Shown here in pieces: positions 54,633 through 59,624 of a DNA stretch of 64,000 nt. The position numbers and the translations under genes were made by a program. Numbering within the stretch: the stretch's first letter is position 1; every line of letters begins with the position of its first letter. The stretch is taken from contig JADKHW010000006.1 in assembly GCA_016721565.1 (NCBI GenBank), positions 31,286-95,285 on the forward strand. Direction: 5' to 3'. The notes below the pieces were generated by a model. It did no database searches, was not told the origin of the DNA, and worked only from the letters and a program-made list of their open reading frames with translations. The stretch is from a bacterium. GTDB taxonomy: Bacteria; Electryoneota; RPQS01.

Positions 54633-54722
54633 GGAGAGGTGGCCGAGTGGCTTAAGGCGGCGGTTTGCTAAACCGTTGTACGGAGTAAATCTGTACCGGG
54701 GTTCGAATCCCCCTCTCCGCCA
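54633..54722 (+). tRNA. tRNA-Ser (anticodon GCU), class II, CCA encoded
   Basis: Acceptor GGAGAGG/CCTCTCC. D-arm GCC-GAGTGGCTTAA-GGC. Anticodon loop TTGCTAA. Long variable arm. T-loop TTCGAAT. 3' GCCA. Confidence 0.85.
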
Positions 54723-54844
54723 ATTGCGCACAAGTACTTGATTATAGTGCTTGTGCGTTTGATATTTTGGAGTGAAGTGCCAAGTATGTGCCAAGTGTTC
54801 TAAGTGGCCGGCACGCCCAAAATAGACCTAAAGGCCAAATCAAA

Positions 54845-55970
54845 ATGAAAAGACCAGACACGCCGAATGTGCGTTCCCGAAAGAATCCAAGCGGTGAACG
54901 CGTGTACTTCGTCGACTACTTCGACTTTGAAAAGAACAAGCGAGTACGCGAAGTCGTTGGTCCGCGAAAGGCTGAAGCAGATCGTCGGGCAGCCGAAATC
55001 TATCAGCAACGAAAGGATGAGTACTTAGGCGTTGCCGTGCCGACGGCCAATGACATTACCCTGGGCGAGCTTATCGACGCATTCTTCCGTAGCAAAGTAG
55101 GTCGCGTTGCGCCTTCAACAATCAAGCGGTATAGAATTCATGCAGCGCACTTAGTTGCCTTTGTCAACAAGAATTTCCCCAAAGTCAAGAACATTCGAGC
55201 GATTCGCAAGGTCTACATCGAGGAACTTTTTGAAGCTTTGCGACGGCAAGCAATGGAGCCCAAGACCCTAAACGCACAACTTCAATTTGTGAAGGCAATC
55301 TTCATCTTCGCCGAACACGAAGGGTATCTTACTGAAAGCCCTGCGAAACGAATCAAACCGTTTCGCGAGACCAAGCAATCCCAAGCAGTGCCATACTGGT
55401 CGAAAATCGAAGTTGTTTCGATTCTTGCGGAAGTGAAACAGGGTGGAGGACGCCTATGAATTCTTGTATCACACGGGGCTGCGTAAGGGCGAACTTTCCA
55501 ATCTCACTTGGGATGATGTTGACCTTGATCACGACCCTCCTTCAATTGCCATTCAAGCAAAAGATGATTGGACAACGAAAACCTTGAAGCGGCGAATCGT
55601 TCCGCTGAATACAAGAGCAGCGGAGATAATCAAACGTCAGGCTCGAAGCAAAAAACACAACTACGTTTTCAAAGCTCCAGAAGGTGGGCAAATCCACCCA
55701 GATAAGATTTATCGCGAACTGAAACGCGCACTGGCTGTCTTGAATCTCGAAGGTGATGTTCACCAGTGGCGACACACATTTGCATCCCATCTTGTGATGA
55801 GTGGAGTTGATATCGCTACGGTCTCCAAACTATTAGGGCATCATTCCATCGAAAAAAGCCATGAAATACCCCCTCTTGCTCCTGGACCACTTGGCGGCGG
55901 GTGTGAGATCACTTGGCGCAAAGGGAAAGAGTGGGGGACGACGCAAACTTTACATCATTTTATGCCTTGA
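54845..55970 (+). pseudogene. Tyrosine recombinase/phage integrase, disrupted by a frameshift near 55443-55459 and a probable second one in an A6 run near 55853
   Basis: N-terminal SAM-like/core-binding domain ORF (54845..55459) and catalytic-domain ORF (55443..55970) are in different frames. The catalytic ORF has R..HxxR (HQWRHTFASHL) and LLGHHSIEK, but the terminal Tyr motif is out of frame. Deleting one A restores ...MKY...LDHL. Confidence 0.7.
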
Positions 55971-55986
55971 TTCTGGCATAAGAAAT

Positions 55987-56018
55987 TAAAGAAGCAAGAG
56001 CTCTGCATTGTGCAGGGC
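55987..56018 (+). terminator. Rho-independent terminator after integrase
   Basis: AAGAGCTCTGCA-TTG-TGCAGGGCTCTT followed by TTCGTTT. Confidence 0.65.
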
Positions 56019-56050
56019 TCTTTTCGTTTCCACCCCCCAAAGGAGTTCCC

Positions 56051-56263
56051 ATGAAAGTCAAAGTCCTCTGCCTTGGCCGCTCGGCCAAGGAAATCAACGT
56101 CAGTGACGGTACGACCGTCGAACAAGCCATCGCGGAATGCGGATTCCCGAAGGATTCGAGCTATACCCGGCACCTGAACGGCAGCCCGTGTTTTGACACG
56201 GATATTCTGGTCGACAACGCCGTGTTGACGTTGGTGCCACAAGTGAAAGGCGGGGGTTGTTAG
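56051..56263 (+). CDS. Ubiquitin-like beta-grasp protein (ThiS/MoaD-like) ending in GGG-C
   Basis: 70 aa. MKVKVL...HLNGSPCFDTDILVDNAVLTLVPQVKGGGC. RBS AAAGGAG 6 nt upstream. The C-terminal Gly-Gly is followed by a single Cys, as in precursor Ubls trimmed by JAB peptidases. Confidence 0.75.
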   Translation: MKVKVLCLGRSAKEINVSDGTTVEQAIAECGFPKDSSYTRHLNGSPCFDTDILVDNAVLTLVPQVKGGGC

Positions 56264-56346
56264 ACAGCGTTCCTGACTGTCTACCAATTAAGGGAGGGCT
56301 GCGGTTCAAGTAACCGTGGCCCTCTCTTTCCTCCGGAGGAACGCTT

Positions 56347-56415
56347 ATGATTGAACAACAAATCCGCACGTTGTGCCGATTCTATGAACAGAAATGGCAT
56401 GTGCCGATTACATAA
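56347..56415 (+). CDS. Leader mini-ORF (22 aa, MIEQQIRTLCRFYEQKWHVPIT) with strong RBS, overlapping the E2 start via TAATG
   Basis: GGAGGA sits 6 nt upstream of the ATG. Its stop TAA overlaps ATG 56415 of the downstream gene. No RBS precedes any candidate start of the E2 gene itself. Confidence 0.4.
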   Translation: MIEQQIRTLCRFYEQKWHVPIT

Positions 56416-57455: not shown

Positions 57456-58131
57456 TGCTGGTGTGAAGATTCAAGTCGAGGCCGAGGCTATGCAGAAGCT
57501 ATGGCTGTGGACTGATTTTGCGAGAGGTGAGGTTAGTTGCCTCGGACTCGTGGATGAAGTTGTTAGCACGGACACTGGTCGCACGACGGCGTTGATTGTC
57601 ACCGACTTCTTTCTGGTAAAGCAGGATTGCACTTCCGACGAAACCGATATGGATGTTGCGGATGTTGCCAGATTGATATCCGAACTGGAAGCGAAGGGAA
57701 TTGACTCGCGTAAGCTTCGTTGCTGGGCACACTCGCATGCGACGATGAGCGTATTCTGGTCAGGTCAGGATGAATCATGTATCAGTGGACTTGCCAATGC
57801 TGAGTGGCTACTCAGCTTGGTCGTGAATAAACGTCGTGACACACAGATGCGCCTTGACCAGTTCCATCCCAGTCATATGTACATTCCTGATGTCGTGTGG
57901 GAAGTGAAATATCCACTGGTGGACGGCCTCGCAGAAGCATGCTTTGATGAGTTCAAGGCCAAAGTCCACGAAGGTACTTTCATGCCAAGAACACGCGATG
58001 TTGTCAGTGGAAGAGATCGTCTTTGGAATGAGCTGGACCATGCGAGGGAACGAGGTGCTTTGACAATGGATGACCTTGATGACGAATTGAATTGGCTGGG
58101 GATTGAACGTGACGACTTTGAACCATATTAG
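57418..58131 (+). CDS. JAB/MPN (JAMM) metalloprotease, predicted Ubl-processing/deconjugating peptidase
   Basis: JAMM motif HSHATMSVFWSGQD (HxHx7Sx2D) with upstream Glu (GEVSCLGLV). RBS GAAGGAGAGGAGG precedes ATG 57418. Overlaps the E2 3' end by 38 nt. Confidence 0.8.
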   Translation: MQNLQRTPRQPVDAGVKIQVEAEAMQKLWLWTDFARGEVSCLGLVDEVVSTDTGRTTALIVTDFFLVKQDCTSDETDMDVADVARLISELEAKGIDSRKLRCWAHSHATMSVFWSGQDESCISGLANAEWLLSLVVNKRRDTQMRLDQFHPSHMYIPDVVWEVKYPLVDGLAEACFDEFKAKVHEGTFMPRTRDVVSGRDRLWNELDHARERGALTMDDLDDELNWLGIERDDFEPY

Positions 58132-58139
58132 GAGACCAC

Positions 58140-58788
58140 ATGAACGACATGCGATTCTTACGTCAAAAAGATGTTGTCGATACCGAGAAGCTTGCGAACC
58201 TGCAAGTAACGTTGATCGGTCTGGGGAGCATTGGGAGCGTCACTGGTCTGTATCTTGCCAAGATGGGCGTGGTCAAATTGACCACCTTCGATTCAGACAT
58301 CGTCGATGTCCACAATGTCAGCAATCAGGCTTATGGGATGTCTGATGTTGGATTGCTGAAGACTGATGCATTTGCAACGCTTGTCGAGAACCAAACTGGA
58401 GTGCTTCCAAACACCGTAGGTCTACAGTATGATGGTCGACAGCTTTCCGGTGTCGTGATTTCTGCGTTGATTCCATGAGTCTCGTAAAACGATCTGGAAA
58501 TCTATACGAGAACAGCCAAGCGTCAGGTTGTATGTTGACGCACGCATGGGTCTTGAAACACTGGTTGTCCACGCAGTGAGACCACAACTCCTAATCGACA
58601 GACTGAAGTATTCACAATCAATTGTACCTGACGACCAAGCTCTGCAAGAACCATGCACGGCACGAACGATTTGTTACACGCCTTTGATGGCCGCGGTTGT
58701 TTGCAATCTTGTGAAACGGTTTATCAATCAGGAAGTACTGCCAAGCCAAGTCACTCTTGATCTTGCAACATTCACTTTGATGGCCTGA
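58140..58788 (+). CDS. E1-like (ThiF/MoeB-type) adenylyltransferase, interrupted by a +1 frameshift around 58470-58478
   Basis: Frame 0 (58140..58478): Rossmann VTLIGLGSIGSVTGLYLAKMGVVKLTTFDSDIVDVHNVSNQ (GxGxxG plus D...N.Q). Frame +1 opens at 58471 and continues to 58788 with ThiF-like C-terminal segments (YVDARMG..., EPCTARTICYTPLMAAVVCNLVKRFI). Confidence 0.65.
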
Positions 58789-58901
58789 GCGGAATTATCA
58801 GTGGAATCCCCGAAAAACTCGTGAAGTCATAAGACCGGCAAGCCACTGACCGTGATATAAAGGGATTTGTGAATAAGCGGATCCGCTGAGGCAGGTTACA
58901 A

Positions 58902-59306
58902 ATGGAATTCACGCCCACCGAAGAGGTGTCTGCCAAACTGACGCCTGCTGAGATAATTGTGCAAGACCAGCCAGGCCGGTTGCTTCTTCCTGCACATGAG
59001 CTTGTTGTGCCGGCAGCGCCCGTCACCTTTTGTCACGCAGCAAGGGATAACATCATGCCCACTTTTCAATTCACGACACACGAACGTTGGGATCATGTTG
59101 TAGAGTATTCTGTTAATGCGCCAACTCTCGAAACCGCTGTTCGAATGGCAGTGACGGGAAAAGTGACATATACCAGTGCAGAATATCAAGAGGGTAATCC
59201 AGTTCAAGAAGTTTTGTCCATTCTTGAGGTGATTAATCACGACAACAAAGAGGTAATCAACAATGAAAAGAAGCTGAAGAAACTGCTTGACAACTCCGTT
59301 GGCTGA
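58902..59306 (+). CDS. Hypothetical 134-aa protein (last gene of the Ubl operon block)
   Basis: ORF followed by a strong terminator. No recognisable motif. Confidence 0.4.
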   Translation: MEFTPTEEVSAKLTPAEIIVQDQPGRLLLPAHELVVPAAPVTFCHAARDNIMPTFQFTTHERWDHVVEYSVNAPTLETAVRMAVTGKVTYTSAEYQEGNPVQEVLSILEVINHDNKEVINNEKKLKKLLDNSVG

Positions 59307-59312
59307 TAATAC

Positions 59313-59338
59313 AAAGATAGGGGGGAACCCCTATCTTT
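59313..59338 (+). terminator. Rho-independent terminator
   Basis: AAGATAGGGG-GGAA-CCCCTATCTT-TT perfect 10-bp stem. Confidence 0.8.
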
Positions 59339-59624
59339 TAGCCTTTTCTGGACATATTTGTCGACTTTATAAGCCTCTATTGGTGGTTGCTATTGATAAA
59401 CATGGAAGAACGATGTAAATTAAGTATGGGCAAGTTAACCGACCTCAACTGATTGAATTACTGGCATTTGTTCATGACGCGACCCGAACTGACTGTAGAA
59501 GAATTTACGCACTACACAAAATGAAATCCTAACCATGAATCTCTTGACTAAGTCAAGTCGAAATCCTTTCTTGTTCTCAGGTCTTGTGAATCTGACGCGC
59601 ACACTTAGCTTGGAGACCACGAAT

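Follow-up and report, generated by a model that had tools for sequence, protein, structure and literature searches.

The question raised by this locus is whether the DNA that follows a tRNA-Ser(GCU) gene is an integrated genomic island, and why so many of its reading frames are broken. The locus lies in a stretch of 64,000 nt (the window) of contig JADKHW010000006.1 (assembly GCA_016721565.1, GTDB lineage Electryoneota), in which the tRNA is followed by a tyrosine integrase gene (int) split over several frames and by an operon for a ubiquitin-like protein (Ubl) and for E2-like, JAMM peptidase and E1 proteins. A preliminary description had regarded this arrangement as an integrated tRNA island with a decaying mobility gene, and had named assembly indel errors in homopolymers as an alternative cause of the damage. 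According to our analysis, with a probability of roughly 0.6, positions 54,723 to 59,340 are the integrase-proximal module of an integrative element with tRNA-Ser genes as its targets, and its frames are broken by error. The module and the adjoining tRNA comprise the following features.

54632-54722, + strand: tRNA-Ser(GCU) (ARAGORN, Rfam), the gene beside which the element is inserted
54723-54844, + strand: left end of the element, with the conserved hairpin GCGCACAAGTACTTGATTATAGTGCTTGTGCGT (54726-54758) and a T-run
54777-54785 and 54788-54796, + strand: two GTGCCAAGT repeats upstream of int, 11 nt apart
54845-55970, + strand: tyrosine integrase gene, broken as written (Pfam PF00589, E=4e-26)
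55996-56022, + strand: terminator-like hairpin after int (12-pair stem, then a T-rich tail)
56051-56263, + strand: Ubl gene, 70 amino acids (aa), ending in ...QVKGGGC, intact (weak ThiS/SLBB Pfam matches)
56347-57455, + strand: E2-like gene, about 369 aa if repaired (GGAGGA ribosome-binding site; homology to the E2 of L086)
57418-58131, + strand: JAMM/JAB-type peptidase gene, 237 aa, intact (motif HSH-x7-S-x2-D)
58140-58788, + strand: minimal E1 gene, about 218 aa if repaired (Pfam ThiF 1.8e-13; PDB profile match UBA5 3.9e-10)
59055-59306, + strand: 83-aa accessory gene (homologs P0197-P0202, 83-84 aa), in a variable slot between E1 and the operon terminator
59316-59340, + strand: conserved operon terminator AGATAGGGGGGAACCCCTATCTTTTAGC (inner hairpin 59320-59332), the right end of the conserved module

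The ATG of the integrase gene at 54845 is located 123 nt past the end of tRNA-Ser(GCU), the distance given in the preliminary description, and the gene reads away from the tRNA. The described succession of a terminator after int, the Ubl operon and a strong final terminator near 59338 could likewise be confirmed, the two terminators corresponding to the hairpins listed above. The order of the four operon genes is Ubl, E2-like, JAMM peptidase and E1, and the 83-aa accessory gene comes after them.

Occurrence of the module in related genomes

Relatives were found by a scan with the neighbouring LptF protein, and the frame-repaired integrase and a PEGA-domain protein were used in further scans (loci are designated by L numbers, proteins by P numbers). 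The LptF scan resulted in four related species, the closest of which is L001 with an LptF identity of 96%. In L001-L004, the pair of tRNA-Ser genes is spaced by about 43 nt. Next come small variable genes, ranging in number from none to a few, and after these a conserved block encoding the PEGA-domain protein, a membrane protein, gltX and LptG. The module is absent from this site in five relatives (L001-L004 and L093). The last of these, on a JGI contig, is the empty tRNA-Ser site for which a comparison with related genomes had been proposed: it is clean, and the PEGA gene begins 186 nt past the tRNA. The metagenome scan with the PEGA protein led to only 4 loci, including one clean empty site and no filled site with both ends.

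An intact block is present at the same LptF-tRNA-tRNA locus in L084/L085, consisting of int and genes for a Ubl of 69 aa, an E2 of 367 aa, a JAMM protein of 238 aa and an E1 of 218 aa. The same block was found in a different neighbourhood beside tRNA-Ser(CGA) in L083, and beside tRNA-Ser(GGA) in L096-L099, where the integrases are only 52-54% identical. Down to an identity of about 52%, the integrase is linked to this operon. Ordered by LptF identity, carriers and non-carriers of the module are interspersed: besides the window, L081 (87%) and L084 (81%) carry it, whereas L001 (96%), L002 (88%), L093 (88%), L003 (84%) and L004 (83%) do not.

The Ubl operon also occurs without this integrase. 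In L086, a locus of the L001 genome, and in L089/L090, the operon is found about 8 kb into islands at tmRNA sites, which are led by a different integrase and an HTH_17 gene. In L088, from the same genome as L004, the operon adjoins DUF5906 and archaeo-eukaryotic primase (AEP) genes. An integrase gene beside a tRNA gene, an empty site in relatives and the same element at other sites and in other genomes were all observed, and judged by these sequence comparisons the int-Ubl block is a mobile accessory module.

A block of OEP, CusB, ACR_tran (resistance-nodulation-division (RND) metal efflux) and Big_5 genes was additionally detected past the Ubl operon in L082 (6284-13594) and in L086 (12626-21089), with 90-98% protein identity between the two. 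In L082 it sits by the tRNA-Ser cassette and in L086 in the tmRNA island. From this distribution, the Ubl operon and the genes to its right appear to be transferred jointly from one island type to another.

Ends of the element

The conserved DNA of the element starts 7 nt past the discriminator base of the tRNA, after a variable junction of 7 nt. The repeats of the left end, GTGCCA(A) with a spacing of 11 nt, are common to the occupied sites. Hairpin and repeats are kept beside tRNA-Ser(GCU) in L081 and L084 and beside tRNA-Ser(CGA) in L083, and neither is present in the alignment of the cassette-free sites L001-L004. The hairpin is a candidate tRNA terminator and the repeats are candidate integrase arm or operator sites. 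Every occupied tRNA retains its own acceptor and T-stem sequence. The insertion thus appears to be located next to the tRNA and not inside it, and the lack of a duplicated tRNA fragment would be explained by this position.

A search of the whole window with the 23-mer of the tRNA 3′ end, allowing up to 3 mismatches, returned a single match, the 23-mer itself (0.00 expected). Nor did blastn-short with the tRNA and 40 nt added to it, fuzzy 16-30-mers or the T-loop core reveal a right attachment site (attR) in the window. The preliminary description had also been unable to find a direct repeat of the tRNA 3′ end downstream, and the fuzzy and blastn-short searches were likewise empty.

The element would have inserted 7 nt downstream of tRNA-Ser(GCU), at an insertion hot spot of the lineage, and its module would be the first part of a stretch of at least 9.3 kb in place of the ancestral junction between the tRNA and PEGA/gltX. 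The integrase may recognize features common to tRNA-Ser genes, with strand exchange occurring within a few bases just past the tRNA, and hence no tRNA segment would be duplicated.

A different trace of insertion was found in L002, where a degenerate 64-nt copy of the 3′ part of tRNA-Ser(GCU) (9008-9071) lies about 600 nt past the intact tRNA and flanks a truncated nucleotidyltransferase-like gene. By its sequence, this fragment is an att-type scar of a different element at the same site, which makes the site an insertion hot spot.

At the right end, the terminator AGATAGGGG..CCCTATCTTTTAGC follows directly after E1 in L084 and L086; in L083, L100 and the window, small accessory genes lie before it. 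Just past it, the homology between cassettes of different contexts comes to an end. Position 59340 is accordingly taken here as the end of the conserved module, and not as a demonstrated island end. The palindrome GTGCGAA-N6-TTCGCAC, which was found after the terminator in L083 and L084 and with a half-site at 59505 in the window, was considered as a core site. It was rejected, because the motif WWNCGCAC is too common (0.5-0.9 occurrences per kb) and the half-site forms part of the conserved 5′ region of a gene for a protein sorted by the type IX secretion system (T9SS). No match to PEGA-gltX-LptG was found in 54722-64000 (tblastx and blastn against L001-L004), and core synteny does not resume at a defined right boundary within the window. 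Since the ancestral tRNA neighbours are not seen before 64000, the non-syntenic stretch comprises at least 9.3 kb. For the GC content, values of 0.51-0.55 were obtained just upstream of the module, 0.46-0.52 within it and 0.42-0.45 past it.

It is well conceivable, at somewhat less than even odds, that the mobile unit is only the cassette of 4.6 kb which ends at the 59340 terminator, the T9SS and S8 peptidase genes downstream being separate insertions, of earlier or later date, at the same hot spot and no cargo of a single larger island. The end of cassette homology right past the terminator fits this explanation, as do the genes past the cassette, which differ at every locus (T9SS, RND efflux, a 733-aa open reading frame (ORF)). 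However, in the window, L084, L098 and L100 the cassette is succeeded by T9SS genes that have a 5′ leader in common. Furthermore, the terminator at 59340 is unmarked by an att site, and no locus with the cassette directly followed by the empty-site flank was seen among the loci compared.

Nature of the frameshifts

The integrase gene was reported to be split into two frames that overlap at 55443-55459, and this is the case. The N-terminal part (aa 1-200) is encoded in one frame (54845-55444) and the catalytic part (aa 203-354) in another (55449-55904). The codon of the catalytic Tyr (TAC, 55867-55869) is found in a third frame, directly past the A6 run at 55852-55857, in accordance with the earlier report of an out-of-frame Tyr motif at an A6 near 55853. 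The R (TGLRKGEL), HQWRH and LGHH motifs share frame B, with the Tyr and the N-terminal 200 aa in other frames. As written, the catalytic R, HxxR, H and Tyr of an active tyrosine recombinase are thus not combined in one frame, which may reflect errors.

For the identification of homologs the frame-repaired integrase was used as query, and the frames were checked by tblastn. Intact homologs of 370 aa were found with identities of 91% (P0001), 75% and 73% (P0003 and P0004 among them). Nucleotide alignments with intact homologs revealed at least six single-base indels in the integrase gene. Two sites of damage had been reported before; both are real features of the sequence, and the total of two is too low. 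The indels are −1 and −1 at 55441-55449, +1 at the A6 run, −1 near 55870, +1 near 55884, +1 near 55908 and more in the tail.

The true start of the E2-like gene is at 56347, and a single −1 frameshift near 56410 cuts off its first 22 codons: in tblastn, aa 1-22 of the L086 E2 match one frame of the window and aa 23-346 another. The E1 gene is broken by two −1 indels, near 58465 and 58482, on either side of the conserved DSM motif. They were seen in comparison to L081, L082 and L100, and the same frame change occurs in comparison to the intact E1 of L084 and L086. In the T-arm of tRNA-Ser(GCU), the runs are shortened as written from G5 to G4 and from C7 to C5, so that two of the five T-stem pairs are gone; the indel positions are 54697 and 54708. 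The Rfam score is 44.9 bits, compared to 60.0 bits for the L081 ortholog.

Altogether, at least nine disruptions affect int, E2, E1 and the tRNA T-stem in the module region, and each is exactly 1 nt in size. The indels form tight clusters, with two within 8 nt, four within about 75 nt (around the Tyr) and two within 17 nt. The ratio of nonsynonymous to synonymous substitution rates (dN/dS), determined against the nearest intact homologs, is 0.10 and 0.02 for the two integrase halves, 0.065 for Ubl, 0.08 for E2, 0.10 for JAMM and 0.06 for the N-terminal half of E1. Amino-acid changes polarised with outgroups amount to 48 in the window and 44 in the intact comparators, and none of the 134 integrase codons past the first frameshift has an amino-acid change unique to the window. 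Long-term pseudogene decay is excluded by the dN/dS values of 0.02-0.10 and by these replacement counts.

In bacteria, the ratio of substitutions to indels is usually about 10:1. At this ratio, 9-11 real indels should bring tens of extra replacements. Furthermore, tRNA-Ser(GCU) is essential and must function, because AGY codons make up 28% of the serine codons in the window genes.

As a control, about 11.3 kb of the flanking core were aligned to L001 (84-88% identity), and no frameshifting indel was detected in any clearly coding region. The only 1-nt gap inside a listed ORF is at 45060, close to where this minus-strand ORF begins. The 94 homopolymers of at least 5 bases upstream are without a visible frameshift.

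The JGI contigs L081 and L082 (3300056624 and 3300056825) agree completely (100% identity) from LptF through the two tRNAs to the integrase. Starting about 95 nt behind the stop codon of int, they diverge by about 10% and show about 60 private 1-nt indels, and their Ubl operons (L081 11240-13975, L082 3720-6372) are 82-97% identical. From the alignment, this looks like an unpolished long-read consensus of a low-coverage, strain-variable segment; alternatively, it may be real hypervariation.

The broken frames and the defective tRNA T-stem in the window are probably assembly consensus errors in a strain-variable region. In the case of error, the organism probably carries an intact element; real indels would have to be extremely recent. 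The idea of a decaying mobility gene is not upheld, as the indels also hit E2, E1 and the tRNA, all are of 1 nt, dN/dS is 0.02-0.10 and the replacements are balanced (48 vs. 44). Of the causes named before, assembly error is rated the better explanation, and a very recent burst of real indels comes second. The example illustrates that an apparent pseudogene cluster can be assessed without reads, using the indel size, dN/dS, lineage-specific replacements and damage to an essential tRNA.

Weighing of the explanations

Several observations weigh against the explanation as an integrative element whose frames are broken by error. About half of the indels lie outside homopolymers. The in-frame TGA of the S8 gene downstream of the module is a substitution, which would fit a real decay of the whole region. 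With the 64-kb window otherwise clean, errors limited to about 4 kb would require a special cause, for which low coverage or cross-mapping of the shared mobile cassette may be candidates. At the seven occupied sites (window, L081-L084, L096 and L098), searches over up to 10 kb revealed neither an attL/attR repeat nor a tRNA fragment; the chemistry of integration and the position of the right boundary are therefore inferred. Within the window, the ancestral flank is not reached again, and a rearrangement may accordingly have taken place. Finally, the assignments of the putative E2 and JAMM proteins rest on motifs and context.

Part of this would be expected if the decay was genuine and the module a stranded remnant with real frameshifts in the integrase, E2 and E1, in which case the defence cargo would be dead, too. 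The disruptions cluster in accessory DNA and leave the core genes untouched, and an undetectable attR would be expected of an old immobilised island; the indels outside homopolymers and the stop codon in the neighbouring S8/beta-helix gene point in the same direction. Nevertheless, genuine decay is rather unlikely in view of the low dN/dS, the lack of surplus window-specific replacements (48 vs. 44, and 0 in 134 codons) where the general ratio predicts tens of them, and the fact that all events are of 1 nt, occur in tight clusters and extend as the same type of change to the essential tRNA-Ser(GCU).

An old, vertically inherited int-Ubl locus, with the loss of synteny due to rearrangement (e.g., between tRNA-Ser genes) or to repeated deletions in relatives, is very improbable: the identity of the island to L081/L082 (80-82% on the nucleotide level) is near that of the core (74-81%), att repeats are missing around the block and the PEGA-gltX flank was never seen past any occupied GCU site, but the block stands beside three different tRNA-Ser isoacceptor genes in unrelated contexts, is absent from the closest relative L001, whose genome has the operon in a tmRNA island, and is opposed by the clean empty site of L093 and the L002 scar of another insertion.

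The ubiquitin-like operon

The Ubl of the window is 88% identical to the intact Ubl of L086, which ends in ...KGGA; the homologs end in ...KGGA or ...KGGV. By sequence, a C-terminal glycine is available after processing, as in the bacterial ISG15-like (Bil) systems; GG is followed by 1-2 residues.

The E2-like protein consists of an N-terminal domain, a long helix, a core with the motif HPH-x8-C-W-G and a Cys-rich acidic tail of the CCHC type. The HPH-x8-C-W-G motif is invariant across the family alignment. PDB profile matches were weak and comprised UBC (E=0.72) and zinc-knuckle profiles, and hhalign placed the motif in register with HPN and Cys85 of UbcH5b at low probability. The AlphaFold2 model has a predicted local distance difference test score (pLDDT) of 67 and a predicted template modelling score (pTM) of 0.34, with a core of low confidence, and a Foldseek search of this model against the PDB gave no match with E≤0.001. 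The E2-like family comprises 76 clusters, all labelled hypothetical, and a Pfam domain was found in none of them. The hosts are uncultured bacteria labelled Calditrichaeota, KSB1 or "bacterium", and no relatives were detected in the viral contigs of IMG/VR.

For the JAMM peptidase, the motif HxHx7Sx2D is invariant in the family alignment, and a single tblastn high-scoring segment pair with the window gene covers the intact proteins of L086 and L084. The protein had no sequence match among Pfam, PADLOC and PDB profiles. The E1 is a single ThiF/UBA5-like adenylation domain with a conserved Cys in EPCTAR. Intact homologs are 218-220 aa in length with one ThiF domain, and their best PDB relatives are UBA5, MccB and ThiF. 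Neither Pfam nor PADLOC provided a convincing model for the Ubl, E2 and JAMM proteins, and PADLOC gave a generic E1 match only.

The ORF of 134 aa listed at 58902-59306 is really the 83-aa accessory gene at 59055-59306. In L100, its homolog begins 8 nt past the E1 stop codon. The 83-aa protein has no Pfam match. Some cassettes contain in the same slot, between E1 and the terminator, a gene for a small Cys-rich peptide of about 32 aa (e.g., MNRKGCVIVDAVCSVADRVCGNDRSDDDKDEK), which is located at 14254-14352 in L083 and just past the E1 stop codon (approximately 12430-12530) in L088 and L089. This slot corresponds to that of the 83-aa gene in the window and in L100.

In a possible reaction scheme, the JAMM peptidase would trim the Ubl to its GG end, the E1 would adenylate it and the cysteine of the E2 would carry it to the target. 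The motifs and the mobile context point to a Bil-like conjugation and to a defence role of the cargo, likely against phages or stress.

Relation to known systems

The module resembles the tRNA/tmRNA islands with a tyrosine (P4-type) integrase in that int lies beside the tRNA 3′ end and reads away from it. Furthermore, the accessory cargo is patchy in close relatives and the element family occurs at several tRNA genes. In contrast to these islands, no direct repeat of the tRNA 3′ end was found at any occupied site and the conserved DNA of the element starts 7 nt past the tRNA; the conserved unit is also unusually small (about 4.6 kb), with an integrase tied to one operon. The preliminary description had called the layout classic. 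With no att repeat at any occupied site, this holds for the gene order of an integrase-led accessory module, but not for the att architecture or for an island boundary at 59340. The island type itself is ordinary, being one more example without a new principle. As a compact unit of integrase and operon beside three tRNA-Ser genes without att duplication, it is tractable for the study of target choice.

With the Bil systems BilA-D (bioRxiv 10.1101/2023.09.04.556158; PMC10557695; described in PMC11601596), the operon shares the succession of its four genes (Ubl, putative E2, putative JAB/JAMM peptidase and E1), a Ubl with GG near the C-terminus and 1-2 residues to trim, a conserved Cys past an HPN-like motif in the putative E2, and mobile or defence contexts. 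It differs in its E1, a single ThiF/UBA5-like domain of 218 aa, compared to the IAD-AAD-CYS architecture stated for BilD (PMC11601596). Further differences are the missing Pfam and PADLOC model matches of Ubl, E2 and JAMM, and the N-terminal domain, long helix and CCHC knuckles of the E2.

Bub (6E/DUF6527) operons encode E1 and E2 proteins without catalytic cysteines and always the DUF6527 serine protease BubE (PMC11601596). Here, in contrast, the Cys of the E2 is invariant and the E1 keeps a Cys (EPCTAR), and no Pfam match to DUF6527 was found among the window proteins. The E1 also resembles the E1 part of Cap2 of the type II cyclic-oligonucleotide-based antiphage signalling systems (CBASS) with Cap2/Cap3 (PADLOC E1-E2 7.5e-13; PDB Cap2 3.4e-7), which likewise have a JAMM peptidase as partner. 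Unlike in type II CBASS, there is no gene for a cGAS/DncV-like nucleotidyltransferase (CD-NTase) or an effector, E1 and E2 are encoded separately, and the operon has a dedicated Ubl of its own.

The cargo is, as far as can be judged from these comparisons, an uncharacterised Bil-like variant and no recognised member of Bil or Bub. This operon is missed by current defence-system and Pfam models, and intact copies are found in L083, L084, L086, L096 and L098. Intact cassettes occur in the metagenome assemblies GCA_013328955.1, GCA_964444755.1, GCA_036504735.1 and GCA_020637445.1. Tentatively, and with odds of about one in three in its favour, the block might even be a self-contained defence cassette of 4.6 kb, in which a tRNA-Ser-specific recombinase that causes no duplication is co-inherited (down to an identity of about 52%) with an undescribed minimal Ubl conjugation system. 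The proposed minimal system would be characterized by the single-domain E1 of 218 aa, an E2 with coiled coil and CCHC knuckles, and the absence of Pfam and PADLOC models. If this was true, Bil and Bub would be joined by a new family that is confined to uncultured Calditrichota/Electryoneota-like bacteria.

Flanking genes

The following features were located on both sides of the module.

53985-54068, + strand: tRNA-Ser(UGA) (ARAGORN; Rfam RF00005, 56.4 bits), part of the conserved LptF-tRNA-tRNA core
54102-54614, + strand: RibD_C/DHFR-like gene (Pfam RibD_C 2.6e-12, DHFR_1 1.7e-6), outside the cassette
59341-64000, + strand: downstream stretch, non-syntenic with cassette-free relatives (no tblastx or blastn match to PEGA-gltX-LptG of L001-L004)
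59535-60887, + strand: gene for a T9SS-sorted protein (Pfam)
60995 to beyond 64000, + strand: S8 peptidase/beta-helix gene with an in-frame TGA (62435-62437)

The second tRNA-Ser and the DHFR-like gene upstream, which had been mentioned before, could both be located. While tRNA-Ser(UGA) was found in all relatives compared, the RibD_C/DHFR-like insertion that separates the two tRNA-Ser genes is confined to the window, the tRNA spacing being about 37-46 nt in ten related loci. No repeats or recombinase that would account for the insertion were found at 54102-54614.

The genes past the cassette vary by locus and include T9SS-sorted proteins, an RND efflux operon and the 733-aa ORF. In the S8 gene, the TGA sits within a conserved C-terminal motif of subtilases (..EVGAG*INAFKTLL..). 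Past it, the frame is open to the end of the window for at least 520 more aa, with Beta_helix/NosD domains. The region may be one gene of more than 1000 aa with a single in-frame stop codon (possibly CGA to TGA), or may contain a sequencing error.

The downstream T9SS genes were considered as shared cargo of the element. This was rejected, as their similarity is limited to the leader and the C-terminal sorting domain, with unrelated mature parts in between. The conserved 5′ leader of these T9SS (Por_Secre_tail) genes was found twice in the window, at 59535-59691 and in a gene at 50303-52282 (50500-50566), and elsewhere in L084 (14208-14356), L098 (14226-14379) and L100 (959-1122). The gene at 50303-52282 is absent from L001-L004, L081, L082 and L084, and the DNA at 50500-50566 is 96% identical to copies in other species. 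This pattern suggests that the T9SS genes are a variable surface protein family that swaps bodies behind a common leader.

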